Positions 1 to 53,443 of a stretch of DNA of 64,000 nt are shown one piece after another. The notes below the pieces were generated by a model. It was not told the origin of the DNA. It did not search any database and saw nothing but the letters and a program-made list of their open reading frames with translations. The position numbers and the translations under genes are program-made. The DNA lies in NCBI GenBank assembly GCA_012401045.1, contig GCA_012401045.1_4704.1. One strand, written 5' to 3'. Origin of the DNA: a phage. How positions within the stretch are numbered: the first letter of the stretch is position 1; every line of letters starts with the position of its first letter.

Positions 1-1674
1 GTAACGCATTGCCCAGCCGGTTTGTTCCCAGCTACCAGACAGAACACGATCGATGATTTCGTGACGAGCGACAACACGCTGAGACATCGTCATATCGGTA
101 CGGTCGAAGCTGTCTTCCCAAGCTTCTACGGTATCCGGGTTAGTGATGTTCATCATGTACAGATCGTCCATATCACGAATATCGTGACGGTGACCATCCT
201 GGTGGTTGTAGTGACCCAGCGGGATACGGTTACCGGTAGCGTAGACCAGCGGTTGGCCGTATTGATATTTCTTGCTGAAGCAACCCAGGGTAACATCATC
301 GAACGCACGGAAGAGGGCTTTGTAACCTTCGGAGATTTCACGGACTTCACCTTCAACTTTGCCCGTATAGATCTTCTCAGCCGCCGGGATCATACGCAGC
401 AGCCAGCTGTACTCACCTTCTTCCGGTACGTCGATAGAAATCAGCAGAGACGGATACAGTACCTGTTGCAGGAACTTGTAAATCTGCTCGTTGGTTTGAG
501 TAGACAGATCCAGCGGTGCGGTAACTTCCGGATCCAGTACCATCGCCAGAGCACCCGGGTTATGCGGACCAATACCACGGGCAGCGTTGCTGATTAAAGA
601 CTGTGCCCACGCCATACCGCTGTTCAGCGTAGCGATGGTGCCAATCAGACCCAACACGAAAGTGTTCGGTGTGAACGCATCCAGCTCCAGCGGGTAAGCG
701 CTGGTCATCACGTAACGCGGCTGGTATTGTACAGTCGGCGGTACCGGATAACCGTTAACCAGAACAGGGCCTTGGTTGAAGGTCGGGTTCTGCGGGCTGT
801 AAGTCAGGTCAATGTAACCGGTGGTGGCGACCAGACGCTGTTGACTATCGTAATCGCTCATCGCTTGACGGATGCGGTTAGAGATAGTTACAGTGATGTC
901 AGAACGCACAGGGTTACCAACAATATCGCTGTCCTGCATACCGCTGGTGTTGTACTGAACGCTGCTGATTGGCTGATCGCTTGCCATCATGCCCAGGTTG
1001 AACTGCGGCAGACCCAGTTTATCACCGAGACGGATTTCGATCGCGGTTTGGATTGCGTTATCTGCAGCAGACAGCAGGGTGGTTGCCAGATGCGCAGATT
1101 CAGCGGTGATTTCATTGGTCACCACAGCCAGACCAGCGATACGAACAGTACCGTTAGACTTACCGCCAATAGCTGAGTACATTGCCGCCATGACTTCGTT
1201 GATGAACGTACCGTTCAGGTTATCAACCCAGGTACGCGGTACCAGAATGTTACCATGCGGACCTTGTTCTTCACGACGCGGCAGCGGAGCCAGACCAGCA
1301 ACCAGCGGAAGCACATAACCAAAGAAGTGGTTATGGTCACCAACTTTTGCACCACTCATAACGACCAGGGTCGGATACGGTACGCTGTACTGGTTCGGGT
1401 CAACCGCAACAAAGATGAAGTCGTTTTTGAACTGGGTATCTTCCAGATATTTCTCCATCAGACGACGGAGATTCAGTACCTGCTCGGAGCCAGTATTACG
1501 GCTAATACGACGGCTCAGTGTACGGTTGATCGTACGCATCGTATGAGTTACTTTAGGCTGGCCAGCAAAATCTGCAGCGGTTTCCAGCGCCTCATCAGCA
1601 CGTTGTGCGGTGCGGGTTTCAGCTGCACGAATTTCTACATTATCGTTACCGTTATTACGTACGTCTAAGCCCAT
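1..1674 (-). CDS. Abundant early protein, truncated at window edge (558 codons in window); candidate phage-nucleus shell protein (chimallin-like) or major capsid protein
   Basis: Open minus-strand frame from ATG 1674..1672 (MGLDVRNNGNDNVEIRAAETRTAQ...) running off position 1; SD AGAGGAA 8 nt upstream; strong high-expression codon bias (CGT/CTG/GGT); early-type promoter motif at 1744-1774. Not in ORF track because no stop in window. Confidence 0.6.
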   Translation of the reverse strand, partial: MGLDVRNNGNDNVEIRAAETRTAQRADEALETAADFAGQPKVTHTMRTINRTLSRRISRNTGSEQVLNLRRLMEKYLEDTQFKNDFIFVAVDPNQYSVPYPTLVVMSGAKVGDHNHFFGYVLPLVAGLAPLPRREEQGPHGNILVPRTWVDNLNGTFINEVMAAMYSAIGGKSNGTVRIAGLAVVTNEITAESAHLATTLLSAADNAIQTAIEIRLGDKLGLPQFNLGMMASDQPISSVQYNTSGMQDSDIVGNPVRSDITVTISNRIRQAMSDYDSQQRLVATTGYIDLTYSPQNPTFNQGPVLVNGYPVPPTVQYQPRYVMTSAYPLELDAFTPNTFVLGLIGTIATLNSGMAWAQSLISNAARGIGPHNPGALAMVLDPEVTAPLDLSTQTNEQIYKFLQQVLYPSLLISIDVPEEGEYSWLLRMIPAAEKIYTGKVEGEVREISEGYKALFRAFDDVTLGCFSKKYQYGQPLVYATGNRIPLGHYNHQDGHRHDIRDMDDLYMMNITNPDTVEAWEDSFDRTDMTMSQRVVARHEIIDRVLSGSWEQTGWAMRY

Positions 1675-1743
1675 TTGGGATTCCTCTTTTCTTAAACTTT
1701 ATTAAATGACGTCATTGAATCAGCTTCTACTCGCTCATTCACC

Positions 1744-1774
1744 TAGGTAATATAACCCTGAAATTTTTTTCAAT
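1744..1774 (-). promoter_or_regulatory. Early-type promoter candidate (minus orientation: TATTG-AAAAAAA-N8-TATATTACCTA) for the 1-1674 gene
   Basis: Plus strand reads TAGGTAATATAACCCTGAAATTTTTTTCAAT; same motif recurs at 30707-30738, 53412-53443 and (variant) 16405-16434; TATATTAC matches the phiKZ early promoter consensus as I recall it. Confidence 0.55.
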
Positions 1775-1928
1775 ATTGGTGTAACCACATTGAACGATAT
1801 AAACCCCTAGGCGAACGCTGCCGAGAAGCAACATTCTTTCTACATATAATCAGGATATGTCTGTAAACTTTTACTTCTCTTATTGAGAGTAAAGTCATAT
1901 CCGTTTACTACCTTCTTACGGAGTTCGT

Positions 1929-3023
1929 ATGTTTCGTGTTTTAAATAACCTCCCGCGAACATCATCGGGTGTGCAGCCCGTCCCTCAGAAAGACTATCTA
2001 ATACGCGAAGTTCAAAGAAACCTACAGACAATCCAGAACCACTATCAAGGTTTTACCTTCGCGGTTCAGAGCGATCACATCCTTGCGTTACTGCTCGCAC
2101 AGCTCCCTATGAGATACGACATCTCAGTACAAACTTACTACGATATGATTCTCGATCTTACTCCAGAATTGGGTAATCGTGTTAAGTTGACAACATCAAG
2201 ATACGCGGGTAAGTTATTCGACGGTGCTTTCTATCCGGGATTGCACGAAGCTATTATCGCAACCGGTGAAAGTCGTCTTATTTCACGTGACGTTCTTGAC
2301 AACTGGCGTAATTGGTCGCCGGTTAGAATCGTGACACACCCATACGCAAATCTTCGTTACATTCCTCTTCACCGAAAGCAGGTTGAAGAAGGACGAGGTT
2401 TTGCGGTCATTATGGTTGATGTACCTTTATTAGCACTACAGTATCGAATGTGGTCTTTGGTCATGGGTCATAACGTCGACGGTAAATGGGTGGTTAAAGA
2501 ACCGGTTACAAGCTTCCTTGCGAGTTTTCCGTTGGTCAACGCATTATATTCACACAACGATGTTGTTATACGCAATCGTTGTTTGTGGGTATCTCCGGCT
2601 AAGAATCCACTCAAATCACCAATTTACGTTAACGACCTTGATAACGTATTCAGCCAAGTCGTTCTGTCCGTACAGCATCATTTATTACGAAGAAGACGAA
2701 GCTACACCGATATGCTTAAACAGATACCGAGTTTATACGGGGATCAGTACCAAGCAACCCGAATGGGTTACACCGTCGATCTTCGACAAACCCGATGGGC
2801 AAGGGATCTGGGCTGTCTGTCGTTATGGCAACAACTCGTCACACTACAAAACGTATCTGAAAGCGTCGGGTTCAGCAGCCAGATCGATAACGACCTGTAC
2901 CGTGCTGCCGACCGTAGTCTAAAAGAAGGTAACTGGGAGTCCTCTCCGTTACCTGGCGATTTAAGACGTGAAGTTATCGCACAGGTTGCCGACCTCTTAA
3001 AAATTCTTCCCGCTGGTGCATAA
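1929..3023 (+). CDS. Hypothetical protein (364 aa)
   Basis: ORF with ATG start and weak SD; convergent with the next gene; terminator hairpin follows. Confidence 0.6.
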   Translation: MFRVLNNLPRTSSGVQPVPQKDYLIREVQRNLQTIQNHYQGFTFAVQSDHILALLLAQLPMRYDISVQTYYDMILDLTPELGNRVKLTTSRYAGKLFDGAFYPGLHEAIIATGESRLISRDVLDNWRNWSPVRIVTHPYANLRYIPLHRKQVEEGRGFAVIMVDVPLLALQYRMWSLVMGHNVDGKWVVKEPVTSFLASFPLVNALYSHNDVVIRNRCLWVSPAKNPLKSPIYVNDLDNVFSQVVLSVQHHLLRRRRSYTDMLKQIPSLYGDQYQATRMGYTVDLRQTRWARDLGCLSLWQQLVTLQNVSESVGFSSQIDNDLYRAADRSLKEGNWESSPLPGDLRREVIAQVADLLKILPAGA

Positions 3024-3030
3024 TAACCTC

Positions 3031-3074
3031 CCTCCTCCCTTGCATCCTCCCAACCCGTAAGGGAAGGGAGGATG
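3031..3074. terminator. CT-rich/GA-rich hairpin between convergent genes (bidirectional terminator candidate)
   Basis: catcctccc...gggaggatg stem within an extended cctccctcctccc / gggaagggagg complementary tract. Confidence 0.5.
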
Positions 3075-3089
3075 GGGTGGTGGGTTATG

Positions 3090-5243
3090 TTACTCTGCGG
3101 TTTCTTGCTTCGGTAAATAACTTGCTGCGATGTCTTGGGCTAACAATGTATTGTTTTTATTCGAGATGAAAATACCATAACTTTCCATTAACGCGTAATA
3201 CGAACGCACGAGCGTAGAGATCAATCGACGAATATCCATACCTTGAATAAAGATATCAGGAAGCCCGGAGGCTTCGATCACCGGTAATGGTATCGTTAAG
3301 TTGCTTATCGTTTTCTTATCGTTACGTACAATCCAATCACGGAAACGTTGTTGTAACCCTTTATCCTCCCAGGAATCAATCCAATCGTTAAGAAGCGTTT
3401 TGTTCTTCGTCGCCAACGGCACACGAACCCCAACATAGGGTGGTTCAGGGCAATGGCCGTACGATTGAGCAAACACCTCTTCCCACATATCGTAAGACTG
3501 TTTCGTTACTGCAACATGCGGTTTCACTTTAACACGCGTTAAGAAATCAGGATCACCACGTTTCATAGACTCAACGATTTCGTTTTCTAACGAGATAATA
3601 TCGTCAAGAACCAATCGAATGCTGATCTTCTCGTTACGTAACAGCTTATCCATGATACCACACATCATGCGTTCAACACGTTTGACGATCATTTTTGGTG
3701 CTGACGCATCACGCATAACCGGACCTTTCAATTCCAGCTTCGGTGGATTGATAGGAACCCCCTCACGCATGGTCATGTAACCGTAATAGTTTTTACCCAT
3801 CGAGGTTAACGACAGAATCAAGAACATATATTCGTTCTTCATTTCCATCACGTACATATGCTCTTTCGCCACACCGATATTACCAGAACACATCGCCATC
3901 AGATGAACCGTAATCTGCGTAACCAGATAGATAAGCGTGTTTGCTAAGCGCGTCGAAACTGGATTGATCTCCATATTTCCAAATCGCCACTGAACCCACT
4001 CCTGGCAGGTAAACACCGTCGAGTCGGTATCAGACAACACACCCACTTCACGGATTGCTGATGGGAAAGCATAAACACCAGCCGGTTGGTTCTCGGTACG
4101 CCAGAACGCCATAATCAAATCAGCATAGCTTTGAATACGCTGTAGCATTAATTTTGTCGTTGCTGCAGTAAGACGATAACCAAGCTCATTTCCTTTTTCT
4201 AGCGCTACGTAAATCGCTTCCCCATTCAAGAACTCCGTACATTGTGCTGTAATCCAAGCGACCGTGTTGTTATCCATGGAAGCAATAATGGCTTTAGCCT
4301 CTTCCATCGTTTCAACAGGTTCGGATGCCAGCTCGCATAACGAATCAAGAAAATCTCGAACAAATTCAGGATTAAGCTCACGTAACGAGTACAGGTTATT
4401 GCTGTACATGTAGCAGGCACGTTCCAACGGTGTTAAACCAGTAATTAACTCCCGGATAGTCAGTTCTTTCTCTGGGTCGAAAGTATATCGATGCAAGCAT
4501 TTCGATACGTTAGCCCAAACCTCTTCCGGCGTAGGGTAATGTAGTTTGTATTTTACCATTACCTGTTCAATGGCTTTACGATCGCTGTTGCGGACAATAC
4601 TCACGATGTTTTCAATTGCGATATCACAATCGTAATAATGGAAATTGCCCGCAAGGAAGCGTTCGTTGTTCGCATTGGCTGAACCTGAAGCACAGCGACA
4701 CGTTGTCGTTAAACTTGGATGCGCAATTGGATTATAAAAAGGGTTAAACTTGGACGCCTGGGTTCCTGACAAACTGTTGTTATCTAACTTGGTGTTGGTT
4801 TGTCGTTTATCGTGTAACTCAGCTTCATCTTTACGTCCGTGTGCTTGCGCTATCGACATTTGTTTCTTTTGTTTCTTACGCAACTTACCGTTTTCAACCG
4901 CAAAGTCGCTTAGCACACTGGAACGTGTTTCACGTGGATAACAGTTAGCCCACACCGGCGTGATAATTAAATTATTTTCTTTAATATCATTGAAGTATTG
5001 GCTGAACTTGATGACTTCTTTTTCTCGATTTCCTTCGGTGCGCTGTGTTAATACAAGGCAGTCGGGATCAACCATCCCGTATTTTCCACCAGGACGAACC
5101 GTATCAAGGACAAACTGCAACGCTTCCTGCTGTGATATCCCACGCATGCGCATTAAGAACAGGGTATAATCCTGTACCGCTTCTTTGGTCATATCCAACG
5201 TACGGCCATATCCGTTTTCATCGTAAAAGAACGGATTTTCCAT
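3090..5243 (-). CDS. Large hypothetical protein (717 aa) with a DTDS acidic motif; function unknown
   Basis: Long ORF; SD GGAGGA upstream of ATG 5243; contains GVLSDTDSTVF and KNYYGY but motif order does not fit family B DNA polymerase. Confidence 0.75.
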   Translation of the reverse strand: MENPFFYDENGYGRTLDMTKEAVQDYTLFLMRMRGISQQEALQFVLDTVRPGGKYGMVDPDCLVLTQRTEGNREKEVIKFSQYFNDIKENNLIITPVWANCYPRETRSSVLSDFAVENGKLRKKQKKQMSIAQAHGRKDEAELHDKRQTNTKLDNNSLSGTQASKFNPFYNPIAHPSLTTTCRCASGSANANNERFLAGNFHYYDCDIAIENIVSIVRNSDRKAIEQVMVKYKLHYPTPEEVWANVSKCLHRYTFDPEKELTIRELITGLTPLERACYMYSNNLYSLRELNPEFVRDFLDSLCELASEPVETMEEAKAIIASMDNNTVAWITAQCTEFLNGEAIYVALEKGNELGYRLTAATTKLMLQRIQSYADLIMAFWRTENQPAGVYAFPSAIREVGVLSDTDSTVFTCQEWVQWRFGNMEINPVSTRLANTLIYLVTQITVHLMAMCSGNIGVAKEHMYVMEMKNEYMFLILSLTSMGKNYYGYMTMREGVPINPPKLELKGPVMRDASAPKMIVKRVERMMCGIMDKLLRNEKISIRLVLDDIISLENEIVESMKRGDPDFLTRVKVKPHVAVTKQSYDMWEEVFAQSYGHCPEPPYVGVRVPLATKNKTLLNDWIDSWEDKGLQQRFRDWIVRNDKKTISNLTIPLPVIEASGLPDIFIQGMDIRRLISTLVRSYYALMESYGIFISNKNNTLLAQDIAASYLPKQETAE

Positions 5244-9631: not shown

Positions 9632-10612
9632 TTAGAAAAGCAAGAAACCGCTATTCTTCGCTTCCGCTACAGTTTCGTCACCAACTTTCGGTGCCTGTTG
9701 ACGCGCGTTACGATGTTCGATGTAACGTTTCGCTTCGTCAGCGATTTGTTTGATAATACCCCCTAAACGATCGGTACTTAAAACAAACGACGTCGCTTCA
9801 CGAATTGGGCTGCTTTCAGGCACAAAACCATCGCAGCTGTAAATAGCGCTAACGCCCATGACTTTTGTCGCGTCTTTCGGATAAAGCGTACAGAAAGCAA
9901 TCGGGCTATCGTTCTCTTTCGTCCAATCGTATCCCATGAACGTATTCAGTTCGGTGATCGTTGGTTCCAAACCGGTAACACGTGGATGGTTTAAGAAGTT
10001 TTCCAGGTCGGCGCTGTCAAGACGACGGTTCTCGCCAGAAAACAGAACACAAAGCTGGCTAATAACAACCTGCACGTCCAGGTTGACATCCTGCTCCGAT
10101 TTCCCATTTTCGCCATTCATGTGATAGCTAACAATCACTGGACGTTTCAACCCTTCTGCAGCCGCCATCAGTCCTTTGAAGGTGCGATCGGCGTTGATCG
10201 TTTGACGCTCATCATCGAACGAGGCAACGATGCAACACACCACACGTTCACCACGTTCCAGCAGGTTAGCAACCAACGCAGGACCTGCAACAGAACCTGA
10301 ACCACCGCTCAGACTAAAGACCACGATATTAAATTTACCTGGCGTATGCTTATTCAGAATACCCGGGATTTGTGAACAGATCAGTTCAGCGTTCTCATCA
10401 CGCTTCTTACCAGAACCGTCTAACTCACGACCGGCTGCATCTTTAAAGATGTAAATATGATCGTCACCCAGTGTGCTATCGCGTAGGTTAGCGCGGCTGG
10501 TATCGACATACGTCATGCTGTGTAATCCTTTCGCGACTTCGCCTTCAAATGCTGAGCCGATTTCGCCACCACAACCACCGACAGCCCAAATATGTACTTG
10601 GTTCTCTTGCAT
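9632..10612 (-). CDS. phuZ: Tubulin/FtsZ-like GTPase, PhuZ homolog (326 aa)
   Basis: N-terminal WAVGGCGGEIG (T1-like) and FNIVVFSLSGGSGSVAGP (tubulin signature loop), aligning by eye with my recollection of 201phi2-1 PhuZ (FYIVCYSLGGGSGSVLGP, QIP motif); SD AGGAG 7 nt upstream. Confidence 0.88.
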   Translation of the reverse strand: MQENQVHIWAVGGCGGEIGSAFEGEVAKGLHSMTYVDTSRANLRDSTLGDDHIYIFKDAAGRELDGSGKKRDENAELICSQIPGILNKHTPGKFNIVVFSLSGGSGSVAGPALVANLLERGERVVCCIVASFDDERQTINADRTFKGLMAAAEGLKRPVIVSYHMNGENGKSEQDVNLDVQVVISQLCVLFSGENRRLDSADLENFLNHPRVTGLEPTITELNTFMGYDWTKENDSPIAFCTLYPKDATKVMGVSAIYSCDGFVPESSPIREATSFVLSTDRLGGIIKQIADEAKRYIEHRNARQQAPKVGDETVAEAKNSGFLLF

Positions 10613-30107: not shown

Positions 30108-30587
30108 TCAGTCTTTCAGCAGCTCAGCTGCATACGCACTGATGTTGTCGCGAATATGCTTAACCTGAGTTGTTGGGAAAGATTTCTTATACGCGGTGGT
30201 CAGGCGTCCGTAAACCTGTTTCTTCTCGTTAGAGCCGAAACCAACTTCAGCGCTACGTTGAACCGTTGCGGACACAACGTCTTTGCCCAGCGGCAGGGTT
30301 ACAGAAACAACGTCAACCTGCTTGTTATCCGCCATGAACTGCGCGCCAACGCGACCTACCGCCAGACCATGAGCCAGACCGATATCGGTGGTCAGTTTCT
30401 GTGCTTTTTCCAGGATTTCTTTTTCTTCCGGCGTTACCAGAGTACCCAGGAAATCACTGCCTAACTTCTGGCTACCAGATTCGTCCAGTTTAATACCAGC
30501 GGCGATTTTATCAGAAAGAGCCTGAACTTCCGGACGTACGTTAGAAGTGGTTTCAGTCGCTACGGTGGTTTCTACAGCTTCAGACAT
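30108..30587 (-). CDS. Abundant early protein of unknown function (159 aa)
   Basis: Strong codon optimisation; early-type promoter motif 120 nt upstream; terminator downstream. Confidence 0.75.
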   Translation of the reverse strand: MSEAVETTVATETTSNVRPEVQALSDKIAAGIKLDESGSQKLGSDFLGTLVTPEEKEILEKAQKLTTDIGLAHGLAVGRVGAQFMADNKQVDVVSVTLPLGKDVVSATVQRSAEVGFGSNEKKQVYGRLTTAYKKSFPTTQVKHIRDNISAYAAELLKD

Positions 30588-30706: not shown

Positions 30707-30738
30707 TTAGGTAATATAGACCTCAACTTTTTTCCAAT
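30707..30738 (-). promoter_or_regulatory. Early-type promoter candidate (minus orientation ATTGGAAAAAAGTTGAGGTCTATATTACCTAA)
   Basis: Only a minus-strand gene lies downstream, which fixes motif orientation; overlaps the stop codon of the upstream gene. Confidence 0.55.
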
Positions 30739-40345: not shown

Positions 40346-41992
40346 TTAGGCTCCACGAGGTCCCGTTAAGTTGCGTAATAGGAACGCAACCGTATCGTAA
40401 CCAATATCGATGTTGAATTTATTTTTACCACTTACCCAGAAAGCTCGCTTCTTGTGCGAGTTGGTAATTTCGTCAATAGCTTCCATGGAATAAAGAACGT
40501 TAACCGAGACCGTATCACCATCAAAGTCCCCACCAAGTCCGGCGAGGTATGGCGCAGGGACAATAGTCGTTTCTACGAACGAAGCATTAGGTAACCAGTC
40601 GGGGTATTCCCATGCGATAAATCGTTCATCCGTTATTGGTTCCCAGTTACTATCCAGTTCGGTTTTCGGTTTTGCGGCGACGGTTGTACGTGCGTAACAG
40701 GTTAACGGGATAACGGATTGCATACCTGATACCGGATAACGTGTTACCATCGCAGCCAGGTTATTCCAGTACTTATATCCGGCAATATAGATAAGCTCGG
40801 TGTAAGTAATGGGGTGAACATCCGCGCCAGGTTTATTCAACATCTCCGGGGGTAATTCACTCATGCCACGGAATAACCGAAACGAATCGTTGTTCACATA
40901 GACGAGGCAAAGATATCGTCCATTGACCATGATAGGCTCGTTACGCACGCCAGGATCGCTTAAGGTGTTCAGTAAACGTTCTATTCCGTCCCATGTTGTA
41001 AAGTCATCGATGGTGTCTGGATCAAGCGTGACGCGCTCACGTTCCATCGTTTCGGTATCAGTAAGTTCAACTTCTGTAACATCACGGACAAATATTTCCT
41101 GCAAAATACCGGTACGTAACGCATGTTGCGTTACTGGGAGAGCGGCTTTACTCATCTGGTATAACCCTAACTGAACCGCGGTACAGGAAGGCTGGTTAGG
41201 CGACCCTAATACCTCCGTTGTGGGGTTAATTGCCGAAATAACGTTACGGGTTGAGTTCCAAACGCGACGTGAACCAAACTTACCTTGGAAGATCCCTTTC
41301 TTACCCTGGAACATATCCAACAGTAAAGCGTAGATATCGTTGAATGTTCTCTGTAAGCTCCAGCGCTGGCCGTCGTAAACGGGATCGGAATAATCTTTTA
41401 ATCCATCAGGGACGGTGTTAGAAATTGCAAGGAAACGACGATACAACTCCGTGATTTCTTGCTCGCTTTCATACCCACCTTCTTTTACTTCTATTTCACG
41501 TAAGCCTGCAGGCAATACCAGTAAGTGACGGGTCATCGCTTTGAACATGTTCTCTTCGACAACTTTAATTCGTAGCTCTCGTTGAGCTGAACCCGTTGAA
41601 ACGAACTTGATATCCGCGACGTGTTGTGCAAAGAACCCGTATCCTGTTTGTCCTGTTAATGCATCAGACGCAACGAAGTCGCGTTGTTCGGGATCCCACC
41701 GAGCGTACGCCTTCCCCGACATGATATCGCCATAGAGGTGTTTTAATCGAATGAGACGGTCGTAAATGACAGGATGCAGGATTTCAACCTTGCATTCAAT
41801 CACCGCAAATCGACGGTCTCGATCTTCACTACCCGCACTACCAAAGATGGTGTAAGAATAGAAACCATCATCGTGGAAATTACCGGTGCTTGGGTCACGA
41901 ATGCTCATGCTCGTGATCTTGGGGAGAAAACGTAACTGCTGTTTATCGAGGTGTAAAATACTAATATTAAACGGCTCTCTGACTTTAGCCAT
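40346..41992 (-). CDS. Multisubunit RNA polymerase beta-prime N-terminal-half homolog (about 548 aa)
   Basis: C-terminal GGDFDGDTVSVNV (beta-prime NADFDGD catalytic motif), GKKGIFQGKFGSRRVWNSTRNVISAINP (cf. LLGKRVDYSGRSVIVVGP), RRFAVIECKVEILHPVIY; start ATG 41992 with SD AAGAGGAG. Confidence 0.8.
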   Translation of the reverse strand: MAKVREPFNISILHLDKQQLRFLPKITSMSIRDPSTGNFHDDGFYSYTIFGSAGSEDRDRRFAVIECKVEILHPVIYDRLIRLKHLYGDIMSGKAYARWDPEQRDFVASDALTGQTGYGFFAQHVADIKFVSTGSAQRELRIKVVEENMFKAMTRHLLVLPAGLREIEVKEGGYESEQEITELYRRFLAISNTVPDGLKDYSDPVYDGQRWSLQRTFNDIYALLLDMFQGKKGIFQGKFGSRRVWNSTRNVISAINPTTEVLGSPNQPSCTAVQLGLYQMSKAALPVTQHALRTGILQEIFVRDVTEVELTDTETMERERVTLDPDTIDDFTTWDGIERLLNTLSDPGVRNEPIMVNGRYLCLVYVNNDSFRLFRGMSELPPEMLNKPGADVHPITYTELIYIAGYKYWNNLAAMVTRYPVSGMQSVIPLTCYARTTVAAKPKTELDSNWEPITDERFIAWEYPDWLPNASFVETTIVPAPYLAGLGGDFDGDTVSVNVLYSMEAIDEITNSHKKRAFWVSGKNKFNIDIGYDTVAFLLRNLTGPRGA

Positions 41993-42237
41993 GGAGACAC
42001 TCCTCTTTACCACCACCGGCTGCGGCGGTATCATCTGAACACACGAGAGACGTAATGGGTGATGGCGTCACCCATCGCTTCCTTGCTTGAGGCGAGGAAG
42101 TTATTAGGTTACGTACCTGCCTGATTTTATCAGGTGGGCGATGTGTGAAGTTACGCTTCAACATTATCAATGCCGAAGGTAAACTTCGTGCATCACGTTC
42201 CAACGTAACATGGGAACGTATCGAACTGGAGGTATAC

Positions 42238-45200
42238 ATGGTAGATAAAACCCGTGTTGAGGGTGATGATAATTGGGACAACTGGGATGAAGACTTCTCC
42301 CTGGATCTCGATTTTAACGAACCCAAAGACGATCGTAAACCGATAACACGCTTTGCGATAGGAGCGGTTAAAGGTGCTGCTGAGGATCTTACTTCCTACG
42401 AAAGAATGAAGGAGATCGCCAGAAACGCATTGCCTAAGGGCTACAGCGACGGTATGGATCTTATTGATTCCGCCGTCGGATCCACGAAGGAACTATACAA
42501 TGAAGCCGTTCGTGACGTTCTTCCTAAGGTCCAAAGCTCAAAACGGTTAGCCGCACAACTGACCAAGAAATACCGTGCGAGCATGCCCGATTTCTCGAAG
42601 AAAATTCTTGAGCAATGGGAGCGAGAAGCCAAGGAAGAAGACGAACGTAAACAAGCTGAAGAAACCCTTCGTCAACGCATGGCGAGCGCGGGGGACGATG
42701 AGATCGCCCGCAAGGTTGCCGAGGCATTAGGCGAATCAGCAAACCAAAGCGCGGATCAGTTCGCTGAACAGCAAGCGAAAGAGAGTATCCGTGACGATAT
42801 CGCTGACAAACGGTACGCTGTAACCAACAAACAAATGAGTGCGATGCAAGAAGGCGTCGCCAAGATGGTTGGTTTCAACAATGAATTCGCTGCACGCTAC
42901 ATGCGTAAAAGCCTGGAACTGAAATATCGTTCCTTAGCGATTCAACGTGCAAGTTTTGATCAGCATAAAAAGTTAGCCGAAGTCTATATCGGTTTATTAC
43001 AAAACATCCAGAAGAATACGGCTTTACCTGATGCGGCTAAAGCAAAAATGTCGGAAGAATTCCGCCGTAGCGCGTACCAACGTTTCTTTGGTAATGCGTT
43101 AGATGCGATGAGTTCTTTCGAGAACCGTTTCTTTGCCGATGTTAAGAAAAACCTTGCCACCAACGCATTAGGTGCTTTAAAAGGCGTCGTGTCTGGCGCA
43201 AACGATGCGTTATACGGTTTAAACGAAGCACGTGACTCGATATCCATGATGGATGGGATGGGGTCAGATGGCGATATTAAGGAAATGCAAGGAAAGATGT
43301 TGGGTCAGTTCATTGGCTCAACTGTCGCACCATGGATGGCTAATAAAGGCAGGATGGCGTTACGCGATTTAGCAAAACGTCACCCCAATGCTAAATTCGC
43401 TAGCGCGTTAAAAGCCGTGGATCAAGGTGGTGAGGCTGCCGCTTACACAACGCGTAATCTCGGTAAACTGCTCCAGGAAGATATTCGTAAGAACGAATTC
43501 AATCTTAGCGATCCGTTTTACAAGCAATTGTTACGCGGTGCAGGGCGTTGGGCGTTCAACATGGACAGCGGACGTAACTTCCGCGTGATGAACGACACCG
43601 CTGAAACACTGGCAGAGCAAACATCTTTCGACGGTTTAACCTACCGCAGCATCAACGAGGTTATTCCAGGCTTTCTTGCACGCATTCTGAAAAGCAGTGA
43701 AGGCATCCGCACCGGAAACAGCGATCCTGACTACGAGGTCTATGACGGCATCAGCGGGCAATTCGTGTCTCAGCGCACGCGTGAGCAAAGCGTCAACGAC
43801 ACGCTGTTTAACAAACGTTCATTTGGTTATTACGCCAGCCGTTTCAACGAGGTTATCTCGGTCATCGATCCCGATAAGCAATTATCGGAAAAAGCCAGGA
43901 AGGCACTGGCTAAACAGTTGGCACGAGATAGCGACGCGAACATCGCATTCGACCCGGCTCGTTTTACGGATGAAAGCAACTTCGATCGTAGTATCGACCG
44001 TGACGCTATTAAGGAACTTTCCACGTACTTTCGTGACCGTTACGGTATTCGTGACGATATCAACGATAAGGGGGAACGTCATCAGGTCATTGGAAACCGC
44101 GGGCAATATTACACGGAACGTAACCGAGCCGATCTTCGTTACGGTAATCTGAAATCTTTACAACCGGATATCCAGCGTAACCTTAACCTGCTGAAACGTA
44201 CTGGTGACGTCCAATATCTGGAACGGATCGGGATTGTAACGAGAAATAGCGACGGAAGTTACTCGGTTAATCACGATAGGTATTTCTCTGAAATCGATCG
44301 GTACATCGACCGGCCGGAGTACGCTGACCGCGGCGATGTTAATACGCGATTAACCGCTCAGGAAACAAGAGCGCTGGCGCTGGGTTATCGTGACGCAAAA
44401 CCATCAGCTGGTGACGTCCAAAATGTCGGCCTGCCGAACATCGGTCGTAAGGCTGCTGGAACAGTAACCGTTGATGAAAACATCGGCTACGATAAATGGT
44501 GGAACGACACAGGTGTTATCACCACATCGCTTGAAGAACAGAATCGAGCGTGGCAAGAGCTTTATCTCGAGGCGTTGTCCGAAGCATCCGAACAACGTGT
44601 TGAAATGCTTGCGCTGCTGAAAGCCATTTCTGAGAAAGACTGGTCTAATAACGTTTCGCTGGATGGTGAAGATGTACCTGAAGGTACAGCACCCATTTCA
44701 TTTATCGATCGTGCCAAACAAAAACTCGGCGGACGCAACCTGTTTAAAGGCGGCCGCAATCTCCTCTGGAAAGGAATTAAAAATACCGCACGTTTAGGTG
44801 TTAAAGGCGCACGCTGGGGTGCAGAACGCACGTTGGGTAGTTTGGTAAATTCTGGCCGACGCATTATCAATTTCAACCGCTTCGTGTTCGGCGCATTATC
44901 CAAGGTTGATCAGGTTCCGTTTGACATTTACGTTAAAGGGGAATCCCAACCACGCATATTGGTTGCTAAACTTCGTCAGGGGTTATACTTCGATGAAGCG
45001 ACAGGAAAAGCCGTAAAACGGATGAAGGATATCAAAGGCCCACTCGTTGATGCGGATGGAAACATCGTAATCAGCAACGAGGATATCGAGAAAGGGTTGG
45101 TCACTCGCGCTGGTCGTGCCTTTGAGAATTCAGGACTTAAAGCATGGGCACGTGAAGGTCTTAATGGAATAACGACGGCATTAAGTCTCCCACGGATGTT

Positions 45201-48200
45201 AAAACGCGGTGCGGTTGAGATCTACAAACAGCTTGACAAAACACCCGACGTTTACGTCAAGGGAGAATCAACGCCTCGTCTGTTGTCCATGGTGTTAGCA
45301 GCGGGTGGGTATTTCCGTCGCTCGGATGGACAAGTCATCAAAAATCTTGAAGACATCGATGGTGATGTTGTTGATGCACAAGGTAACGTCGTACTTACGC
45401 TTGCCGACATGCAGAAAGGACTTGTCGATAAATACGGTAAAGCGATTCGTCGTTTAAAAGAAAAGCTCATCAACTTCGGTGTAAAAGCTTTTACGTTACC
45501 GTTAACGTTGCTACGTAAGACAAAGGACATCCTTAAAGCCCTTCCAGGTAAAACCGTTAACGGTCTACGGCGGATGGGATTAAATTTCCAATCACCTGAC
45601 GCGTTACTGGTGGGAACAACGTCGAGCATGGTAGATCGCCTCGATGCTATTTACCAGCTTCTTGACCAGCGTATGCCGGGAGGTGATAAGGATTACCGCG
45701 ATTGGAATGGCGATGGTGTTCGAGAAGGATCGTTGGAAGACCTGAAACGTAAGCGTGAAGCCAAGGAAAACGGTAAGGATGACATCGGCAAAGATTCCAA
45801 TAAAGGAGAAGAAAAGGAGAAGAAACGAGGGTTACTCGGAAGCCTTTTCGATATGCTCGGTGATACCGCAATAGGTAAACGTCTCATGGCGAGTCCGCTT
45901 GGAAAAATTCTGGGTGGTCTTGGGGCGGTGTTAAGCGGCGGTGCGTCGTTAACTGGGTTGTTGGGCAAAGGTCTCATTAGAGGAACCGGCGCGCTGGTCA
46001 AGGGAGGACTAAGTGCGGCAGGATGGTTAGGACGTGGTGCGTTAATGGCGGGTGGGGCCGCGTTGAACGCCGTTGGTGGGTTATCGGGATTAGGTGCATT
46101 CCTCATCTCACCTGTTGGGCTTGCTATCGCTGGCGGTGCGTTGGCTGCTTATGCTGGATGGAAGATCTATCAGCATTTCGCCGAGAAGCCTGACCCGATG
46201 CAGAAGCTCCGTCTTATTGCATACGGTGCAAAAGGGGACGATAAAGACTTCAATAAGAAGCTGCTTGCGACAGAAACATACCTCACCGACCATGTGGTTA
46301 TGACCGGGGATACCATCGGATTCGATCCGAAAGCCGACTCGGAAAAGATTCTCGAAATCTGGGAATTGTCTCTGGAAGATTCCGACCGAATGAACGAATG
46401 GAAACGCTGGTATCTGCATCGTTTTATTCCTGTTTTCGCTCGCGCGTACAAACTCTGGAAAGAGCATATGCCGGACGAGAAGAAATACATGGAAATGGAT
46501 AAATATCCGAACGGTGAGAACAAAGTGAAATGGTCGGAAGCGTTTATCTGGCCTTCCGATAGTCCTGATGGTCCGTATTACGTCGAAGCTAACCCGTTGG
46601 GTTCTTCTGGTGCGACGCGTTATATTGCTGGTCAAGACGTCAAAACCTTGATGCTGAAACAACTCGAAGCCATCAAGAAAGAGTACCAGAATCAGATTAA
46701 GCAATACACTCATGATGAGGCTATTGCTGATTGGTCACGGATGTCTGACACACAACGTAAATCCGTTGCGCCTAACGCATTACGTGGTCAGAAAGCGTCA
46801 TTACGTTTTAACGATAAACGTTACAACAGCGCTGGTGCTAAAGGACGACAGAAACTGGATGCAACCGCGGTTATTGAAAGCGTAGACCGCCGTGGTAGGA
46901 AATGGGTTGCCGGTGGATACATCGATGAACTCACCAGTCTTCGTGTTCGTGCGTACGGTATTAAGGTTCCGTTGTTAAGTCAGATAAAAGTGCTGATGGA
47001 ACTTGAAGACGCTGTAGAACCTGGCGTTGTCGCTGAAGGTAAAGGTGTTAAATACGGTGGCGATCTTGTCGCGCTCTACAAGAAATTCGCGACGAAGTTC
47101 GGAAGAGACGTTAACAGCAAGCATGATCAGGATATCTGGTTTGCTTGGATGAACAACCGTTTCCTGCCCGTCTTTTTAACCTATTACCAACAAGTTAGCG
47201 ACATGGGCGGTCAAGGACTTCTGTCCGACGTGGTACAGAACCTGAAAGACAGCCAACGCTGGGAAATCGGTGAAGCACTTGTCGCAACGCAATACCGTGA
47301 TGAGAAAGGTACACTGCAGCCTGTATGGTCCTGGAATAGTTGTGGTTTCTCCGGTACTGAAGCTAACACCACCAGCAGTTCAACAAAGAGCCAACTCGAT
47401 CTGTTAAAAGAATATGCGGATAAAGAGAAGGTTCGTGAGAAGAACGCGGAAGCATCGCAAGAGGATACCGATAAATTATCGAAGATCCAAGAGCTGATGA
47501 TGAAGCAGGCTGGGTACGAGAAGAAAGACGGTGTCTGGCAGAAGAAATCTCGCATTACCGGCGGGATGAGTAACTCCGAAGCGAATTACAACCCCAATAG
47601 GAATAAGGTCGGTGAAAGCAGCTTTACGGCTTCGGCTACTTCCAATGCGGGATTAGGGTCAACCGGCGATCTTACCGGATTGCCTAACATGGGCTTACAG
47701 AAACCTGCAATGGGACCAGGTCCTGAAGCTGGACGTCGTGCGCTTGTTAAATCCGCTGTAAAACGCGGCATTACCGATCCGATGGAAATGGCGATGTTCC
47801 TTGCGAACATCGAACATGAATCGGGGAACTACACTCACGTACGTGAGGGGAACTATAAGACACCAGAGCGTCTTAAACAGGTCTTCCCTTACAAATTCCG
47901 TGATGTGCAGGATGCCGCACAGACGATCAGCATGGGTCCGGAAGTGGTATTCGAACGTGTGTATGGTAATCGTAAAGATCTCGGAAACACACAGAAAGGA
48001 GACGGGGCGAAGTATTTAGGACGTGGCTTCATTCAGGTTACCGGTAAAGCTAACTACGCTCGTCTGTCCAAGACCTTGAATAAGGATCTTGTCAGCGATC
48101 CGACCTACCTGGAAACGCCGGAAGGTGCAGCGGAAGGTAGTGTCGCATGGTGGCTCAACCGAGGTAACGTATTACGCGATCCCGCAAAACGGGGTGACGT

Positions 48201-52298: not shown

Positions 52299-52811
52299 TT
52301 AAACTTCTTCGTTTTCTGAACCTAATGATTCAGCATCTGGATCGTCAACAGGAATGGTTGCATCAAAATACCGTTTCGTATGCGTGGTTGTATATCCTAC
52401 GCTATCTGTGATGGAAATCGTAAACGTGACTTCCCTTGCACGGATTAAGCGTAGTTTATTCATGAAGTTACGGAACGGCATCGATCCCCGATTCAACTCC
52501 TTAATGACGTTTCCCCGAATACTGGAAATGTCTTTATTCGTTTTATCAGGGTGTCGTTTCTTCACATCACGCATATGTCGGGTAATATACGAATTGAGCT
52601 GATTTGCGCCGATCCCTCTCTCCGTATAAATCTGCAACAGGAACTCCGTAAGGAAATCCTGTCTACCCGTAGGCGTCCAGAAATTGTTACCGTGATTGTA
52701 GTTAGTCGCTCGTCCTCGATTGCTTTGAGGATTTTCATCATCGCTTTCATCACGACGCTTAAGCGGATTAATGCGTGCGCGGAAAGAGACTTCATTATAT
52801 TTATTTGTCAT
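52299..52811 (-). CDS. Hypothetical basic protein (about 170 aa)
   Basis: ATG overlapping upstream stop (ATGA coupling). Confidence 0.55.
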   Translation of the reverse strand: MTNKYNEVSFRARINPLKRRDESDDENPQSNRGRATNYNHGNNFWTPTGRQDFLTEFLLQIYTERGIGANQLNSYITRHMRDVKKRHPDKTNKDISSIRGNVIKELNRGSMPFRNFMNKLRLIRAREVTFTISITDSVGYTTTHTKRYFDATIPVDDPDAESLGSENEEV

Positions 52812-53323
52812 AATACACCAGTGTACTGACTGAGTGCGAAGGTTAGGAGTTCGCAACAGTCTCTCGCTAGTTTCCTTGTTTTGCGTAATCCATAAGCCGC
52901 ATCCAAATCGTCACGTTCCGCCAGCGCGTCTAACCACGTCGCAAGTATGCGTCCATACTCGATAACGTCACGCATGAGAACGTCGAACCGGATAACACGA
53001 CCATCGGCATCAGCAAGCCAACGATTGAACGTGATTTGTGGTGCTAGTATTGCATATGTTCTCTCCTCTAATGCGATTATGTTTATGTTGCCTTCGTTAT
53101 CGAACGCTTGATGCCAACGGCGAAGGTCAAGCATCAACGACTCAGCGTCCATATACCACAACGGTAAATACGTTTTACGTGCAACGCGTATATCGTAGAT
53201 GTTGTGAACCCAGGACGTTGTTTTGTAAAGCAACAAGAGTTCGTTTAACCGTTGCCTATCATCTTGAAACGTCTTCCTTTTATAACGTTGGAACGCACGC
53301 CTCAAGAAAAAGCGATGTAACAT
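52808..53323 (-). CDS. Hypothetical early protein (171 aa)
   Basis: SD AGGTGA; early-type promoter motif about 95 nt upstream. Confidence 0.6.
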   Translation of the reverse strand: MLHRFFLRRAFQRYKRKTFQDDRQRLNELLLLYKTTSWVHNIYDIRVARKTYLPLWYMDAESLMLDLRRWHQAFDNEGNINIIALEERTYAILAPQITFNRWLADADGRVIRFDVLMRDVIEYGRILATWLDALAERDDLDAAYGLRKTRKLARDCCELLTFALSQYTGVL

Positions 53324-53411: not shown

Positions 53412-53443
53412 AAGGTAATATAGTCCTGTTATTTTTTTCAATA
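53412..53443 (-). promoter_or_regulatory. Early-type promoter candidate (minus orientation ATTGAAAAAAATAACAGGACTATATTACCTT)
   Basis: Third copy of A-tract + TATATTACCT motif; divergent region. Confidence 0.5.

Follow-up and report, generated by a model that had tools for sequence, protein, structure and literature searches.

A codon-adapted gene cut by the edge of a Goslar-type jumbo phage sequence encodes the phage-nucleus shell protein chimallin

The left end of a 64,000-nt stretch of phage DNA (hereafter the window, meaning the whole stretch analysed) cuts through a minus-strand gene. A reading made from the sequence alone had described it as an early, codon-optimised gene and a candidate for chimallin, naming a major capsid protein as the other option. 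The locus raises the question of which protein is encoded, whether the gene is shortened only by the window edge, and which sequence features could account for abundant early expression.

From a minus-strand ATG at 1674-1672, 558 codons run open to base 1 with no stop.

1..1674, minus strand: chmA codons 1-558 (of 631), encoding the phage-nucleus shell protein chimallin, identified by identity to PDB 7SQT, Pfam PF25677 and PHROG 4795

The translated fragment is identical to the Goslar chimallin chain (PDB 7SQT/7SQU/7SQV) at 552 of 558 residues, end to end and without gaps. Its sole Pfam match is PF25677 (Chimallin_Phikzvirus), which scores 73 bits (gathering cut-off, 27) and spans residues 20-517 (profile positions 11-511 of 627), and its sole PHROG match is PHROG 4795, "nuclear shell protein" (1.3e-44). 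When 50,697 phage records were searched with tblastn, the top match was the Goslar "nuclear shell protein" at 98.9% identity, followed by approximately 100 chimalliviruses at less than 30% identity, many of them carrying the same annotation. RefSeq likewise annotates a "nuclear shell protein" at the corresponding Goslar position. These matches bear out the chimallin proposal, and we are nearly certain that the feature is the 5' 88% of chmA from a chimallivirus, namely a Goslar-type jumbo phage that infects E. coli. It is a natural allele of a gene that is already known, with structure, assembly, essentiality and timing already published.

The visible part ends at residue 558 and includes the N-terminal tail together with the bulk of the globular body. 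The chimallin fold, with an N-terminal domain and an AtaT-like C-terminal domain, was recognized through near-identity to 7sqt_A and not by modelling. The N-terminal lattice-linking region is present and identical to that of Goslar, and the C-terminal 73 residues lie beyond the window. Four plus-strand open reading frames over the same DNA (22-597, 727-1176, 989-1318 and 1255-1668) were rejected as antisense shadows cast by the strongly codon-biased chmA.

Along its entire length the window is collinear with Escherichia phage Goslar, with a DNA identity of approximately 97.5%. Window positions 1-40,519 align to Goslar 171,225-211,747 (97.6%), and positions 40,527-64,000 align to Goslar 213,799-237,273 (97.3%). 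Given this collinearity, the window belongs to a Goslar-type phage. Neighbours in common with Goslar include PhuZ, the divergent DNA polymerase and, downstream of chmA, an nvRNAP subunit. Goslar positions collinear with the window carry annotated RNAP subunits, and the window thus has the chimallivirus core genes: PhuZ, split virion and non-virion multisubunit RNAPs, and the divergent DNA polymerase.

1929-3023, plus strand: 364-aa gene, homologue of Goslar gp245, divergent from chmA
3090-5243: divDNApol, from the annotation at the collinear Goslar position
9632..10612, minus strand: PhuZ tubulin gene, PHROG 4733 "tubulin PhuZ" (2.9e-68), 7,958 nt from the chmA start

The claim that a PhuZ gene lies 8 kb from the candidate was accurate in both distance and identity, with PDB matches to the near-identical 9pm9 (4e-220) and to phiKZ PhuZ 3zbp (8e-29) beside the PHROG match. 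The 364-aa protein matches PHROG 3938 (function unknown; 7e-53) and has a weak match to a PHROG labelled "virion structural protein". It is widespread, its exact sequence occurring in 46 blocks of a public assembly collection. A search of complete E. coli genomes with window positions 1-3100 gave no match, and nothing there pointed to a copy that is resident or in a carrier state. Scans of the entire window for Rfam families and for tRNAs likewise yielded nothing.

Two differences among Goslar-type phages were observed in RNA polymerase genes. Goslar 211,748-213,798 (2,051 bp), which holds an annotated group I intron and the gp206 ORF "weakly similar to phiKZ ORF179", is absent from the window at 40519-40527, where the virion RNA polymerase subunit gene is an uninterrupted 562-aa ORF (40346-42034, minus strand); the Rfam scan detected no intron in the window. 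This difference is an intron presence/absence polymorphism. The nvRNAP beta' gene adjoining chmA lies outside the window (at about 5900-7760 in the relatives' stretches) and encodes 423, 434 or 449 aa, with an HNH endonuclease ORF after it present or absent depending on the relative. At this locus Goslar has an HNH gene as well as a group I intron, and the variation is a second intron/homing-endonuclease polymorphism.

The missing 3' end was assessed from the same gene in relatives, namely Goslar and eight Goslar-like contigs located via the neighbouring 364-aa protein. Most of these contigs are approximately 236-239 kb long, and each of the eight differs from the window by 71-126 mismatches over the first 3.1 kb. 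Goslar chmA is 1,896 nt long and encodes 631 aa, and the gene at the same position in all eight contigs also encodes 631 aa. Because the relatives' gene has this length, 73 codons and the stop lie beyond the left window edge. The last visible sequence is ...GWAMRY, after which all relatives carry the same 73-residue tail with one variable position (DFDPLALQALIEAAADAGF...NNMGGAFNLF, starting DFDPLALQ). In the chimallin of 201phi2-1, which is also 631 aa long, this stretch holds a linker, CTS1 (590-611) and CTS2 (622-631) (PMC9365700). Both segments are also found in the Goslar protein and tie tetramers together in the shell (PMC9365700). Judging from the relatives, the C-terminus of the window chmA is probably intact.

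The description of a gene cut at the window edge is therefore correct, the frame being open to base 1 and the relatives' protein being 631 aa. A gene that is truly shortened or decayed, as a pseudogene or a short allele, would also present neither a stop codon nor a C-terminus here. However, all 558 visible codons are open with a dN/dS of about 0.1-0.18, the gene encodes 631 aa in all nine relatives and its tail hardly varies among them, the Goslar alignment continues straight to window base 1, and chmA is essential in Goslar (PMC10541120). A truly truncated allele is thus unlikely, and we consider its probability to be very low.

Pairwise dN/dS values for chmA against the nine relatives range from 0.09 to 0.18, and the gene is therefore under purifying selection. 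Approximately 1.2% of nucleotides within chmA differ from Goslar, and the six substitutions (window residue first) are Q81R, N84D, S167A, V177A, F455Y and Q474L. N84 is the sole residue unique to the window among the ten sequences compared. Across these ten Goslar-type chimallins, 24 positions vary, and six of them are clustered in residues 76-90 (window 1435-1449 region): Y/E76, T/K80, Q/R/G81, N/D84, F/M88 and A/T90, which form two haplotypes. The cluster suggests either recombination or a tolerant surface patch just past the N-terminal tail segment.

We then compared codon usage across the 54 open reading frames of the window. CAI was calculated against E. coli highly expressed genes with the Sharp & Li 1987 weights; the effective codon number (Wright) needs no reference set. 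The claim of extreme codon bias holds on both measures: chmA has a CAI of 0.622 (rank 2 of 54) and the lowest effective codon number in the window (34.8), with a GC3 of 0.55. The top CAI in the window (0.637) belongs to a 159-aa gene at 30108-30587 (minus strand), the homologue of Goslar gp214, which matches PHROG 9746 (function unknown) only and has no informative Pfam or PDB match. Genome-wide, the 250 Goslar ORFs have a median CAI of 0.28. Five lie above 0.6, and the sixth follows at 0.48.

Goslar gp41, major capsid protein: CAI 0.743
Goslar gp58: CAI 0.731
Goslar gp23: CAI 0.659
Goslar gp214: CAI 0.655
Goslar chimallin: CAI 0.613

Virion mass spectrometry found gp41, gp58, gp23 and gp214 to be very high-copy, the three beside the capsid protein being estimated at hundreds to thousands per virion (bioRxiv 10.64898/2026.04.21.720040). 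The same 2026 preprint places gp214 among the proteins of unknown function present in over 200 copies per virion (bioRxiv 10.64898/2026.04.21.720040). Since these four genes with the highest CAI encode very high-copy proteins, codon adaptation tracks abundance in Goslar, and chimallin and capsid were therefore the right two kinds of candidate. The heavy codon optimisation of chmA fits a demand for very many copies early in infection.

An HK97-fold major capsid protein, codon-optimised for approximately a thousand copies per virion, would share this bias, as gp41 has the top CAI of the Goslar genome, but the Pfam and PHROG searches returned chimallin or nuclear shell matches only and no capsid family, the PDB sequence matches are all chimallins, the solved chimallin that the fragment matches at 98.9% identity is described without an HK97 fold (PMC9365700), and gp41 lies at 43,439-45,661, outside the Goslar stretch covered by the window, so that we regard the chance of a capsid gene here as negligible. 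The C-terminal domain of chimallin has been likened to the acetyltransferase toxin AtaT and not to the HK97 fold (PMC9365700), and gp41 has been modelled in the Goslar virion cryo-EM structure (bioRxiv 10.64898/2026.04.21.720040). The Pfam, PHROG, PDB and tblastn matches, together with the location of gp41, exclude the capsid alternative named by the sequence-only reading. That reading had also counted presence in purified virions against chimallin. Mass spectrometry of Goslar preparations purified on CsCl did, however, detect chimallin, a finding that the authors attribute to co-purifying nucleus fragments (bioRxiv 10.64898/2026.04.21.720040), and virion presence is therefore an unclean basis for refuting chimallin.

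Having assigned the gene to chimallin, we examined the DNA upstream of its start codon.

1682..1687, minus strand: Shine-Dalgarno site AGAGGA (GAGG core), 8-nt spacer to the ATG, from sequence
1675..1928: divergent intergenic region between chmA and the 364-aa gene, 254 nt, holding the chmA promoter and 5'UTR
1739..1773, minus strand: early-type phage-specific promoter TTGAAAAAAATTTCAGGGTTATATTACCTAGGTGA, from motif enrichment and a match to published promoters

The ribosome-binding site had been called strong. It is of median strength, normal and not outstanding: its pairing with the 16S 3' end is predicted at -6.0 kcal/mol, rank 28 of 53 genes, against a window median of -6.1. The site is unpaired in the predicted fold of the 5'UTR, and the leader is approximately 65 nt long. 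Because the site is only median, high chmA output would rest on transcription and codon usage and not on initiation strength.

The proposed early-type promoter motif held up. TATATTACCT, at 1754-1745 on the minus strand (-80 to -71 from the chmA ATG), is present as three perfect copies in the window, compared with an expectation of 0.05; none of 100 shuffles reached three. A 29-nt pattern, TTGAAAAAAA-N4-AGG-N2-TATATTACCT, is common to all three copies with at most one mismatch (0.00 expected), and the motif matches published phiKZ and 201phi2-1 early promoters. At chmA, TATATTAC forms an extended -10-like core that is preceded by TTT-CAGG and an A-tract. Only four of 281 aligned columns of the intergenic region vary among the window, Goslar and the eight related contigs, and the promoter element itself is invariant in all ten genomes. 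The promoter of the 364-aa gene must also sit in this near-invariant region. No sigma-70-type promoter was found in the intergenic region. The lone consensus match to a host sigma-70 promoter lies inside coding sequence at chance level, and TTGAAA and TATATT within the phage motif were rejected as a sigma-70 pair, since they are 13 nt apart and too close.

In every jumbo phage profiled, the early promoter consensus consists of conserved AT-rich motifs near -10, and a review concludes that these must be recognized by virion RNA polymerases (PMC7598289). We infer that the injected virion RNA polymerase uses the chmA promoter. The phiKZ chimallin gene, PHIKZ054, has a primary transcription start site at an early promoter and a secondary one at a middle promoter (PMC8244752). 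In Goslar, chmA transcripts were at normal levels when infection was arrested at the pre-nuclear vesicle stage, with only the early programme running (PMC10541120). The sequences in Extended Data Fig. 4 of that study start 91 nt upstream of start codons according to the legend, which does not fix the transcription start site (PMC10541120). With the motif present here and the timing taken from the Goslar and phiKZ literature, chmA of the window phage would be expressed early from a vRNAP promoter.

To place this promoter among others of the same kind, we searched the Goslar genome with a weight matrix built from eight sites. This search returned TTTCAsGnyTA(T/C)ATTACyTnnnTGA 12 times as a strong match and once as a weak one, in every case on the minus strand. 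Scores of the strong copies are 30-59, compared with 11.5 for the best of five shuffled genomes. A published Goslar promoter consensus was not found in the literature searched. The A-tract upstream half (TATTGRAAAAAA) occurs in only three Goslar copies, those of chmA, gp214 and gp200, and a T-run upstream half (AAYCCAACATTTTTCACGG) occurs in five, before gp004, gp105, gp159, gp175 and gp182. The core TACATTACCT is found in four copies, before gp021, gp040, gp046/047 and gp075. In addition to the chmA copy, the window holds two A-tract promoters.

30709-30737, minus strand: second A-tract promoter copy, ahead of the gp214 homologue
53413-53441, minus strand: third A-tract promoter copy, upstream of the Goslar gp200/gp201 homologues

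Two of the three A-tract genes rank among the five most codon-adapted of Goslar. The gp200/gp201 homologues (52808-53323 and 52299-52811, minus strand) are small hypothetical genes with a CAI of 0.19-0.20 and no Pfam or PHROG match. Because the promoter type of chmA also precedes gp214, whose protein is abundant in virion preparations, the motif may not mean "early only". It is a modest and rather improbable idea that A-tract promoters form a distinct sub-class with separate regulation, for example for very high or prolonged output or for use by both phage RNAPs. The phiKZ chimallin gene does have start sites of both kinds, early and middle.

Published work on Goslar, 201phi2-1 and phiKZ, applied here via near-identity, suggests how the gene would act. 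After injection, the virion-packaged multisubunit RNAP would transcribe chmA and other early genes while the genome sits inside a membrane vesicle, and host ribosomes would make chimallin in bulk. Chimallin tetramers, linked via N- and C-terminal tail segments, would then form a closed square lattice. This lattice would constitute the phage nucleus, surrounding the genome as it replicates and shutting out host nucleases. For Goslar chimallin, the structure and self-assembly into a shell have been described (PMC9365700), and knock-down of chmA cuts plaquing at least 10,000-fold (PMC10541120). As the window protein differs from the Goslar protein at 6 of 558 residues, it probably shares this self-assembly and essentiality.

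Jumbo phages that form a nucleus are defined by chimallin, whose shell keeps restriction and CRISPR nucleases away from the phage DNA, a property relevant to phage therapy. The window copy contributes no more than a natural allele that differs from the solved Goslar protein by six substitutions. As a check of method, codon adaptation, a promoter motif and a nearby PhuZ sufficed to spot the shell gene from raw sequence. The promoter family of 12-13 copies with two sub-types may be of modest use for work on Goslar transcription, as may the coincidence of the five codon-usage outliers with the most abundant proteins.

Compared with known systems, the window gene is closest to Goslar ChmA, which is gp189 in the GenBank numbering (Laughlin et al. 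2022) and HOV27_gp246 in RefSeq. It has the same genomic position and flanking neighbours, an almost identical upstream intergenic region, and an unchanged promoter motif, Shine-Dalgarno site and start codon. The chimallins of Pseudomonas phages (201phi2-1 gp105, PDB 7SQQ; PhiPA3 gp53/PhuN, PDB 8FNE; phiKZ gp54) belong to the same PF25677 family. In contrast to the Goslar protein, they align with the window protein over residues 62-521 at only approximately 21-23% identity, with weak PDB matches to PhiPA3 8FNE (2.7e-15) and 201phi2-1 7SQQ (2.5e-8). The hosts also differ, being E. coli for Goslar-type phages and Pseudomonas for 201phi2-1, PhiPA3 and phiKZ.

Published early promoters include phiKZ TATATTAC, 201phi2-1 TTAWTAVAA_HYWTTTRARR_BTATATTACDWHDGTG and OBP/N1M2 ...TTTYARRYAKATATTATYWWADTG (PMC7058600 Table 2). 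The window promoter (...AAATTTCAGGGTTATATTACCTAGGTGA) and the phiKZ-like early promoters share the layout TTT-CARR-N-TATATTAC-N4-GTG. The window element lies ahead of a known early gene, and the phiKZ chimallin gene has the same early-promoter arrangement and core. The upstream half is an A-tract in the window, whereas a T-rich element is described for phiKZ. Relative to phiKZ-like promoters, the Goslar-specific extension consists of TATTGRAAAAAA upstream and CCT after the core, and it is present in only three of the 12-13 Goslar copies.
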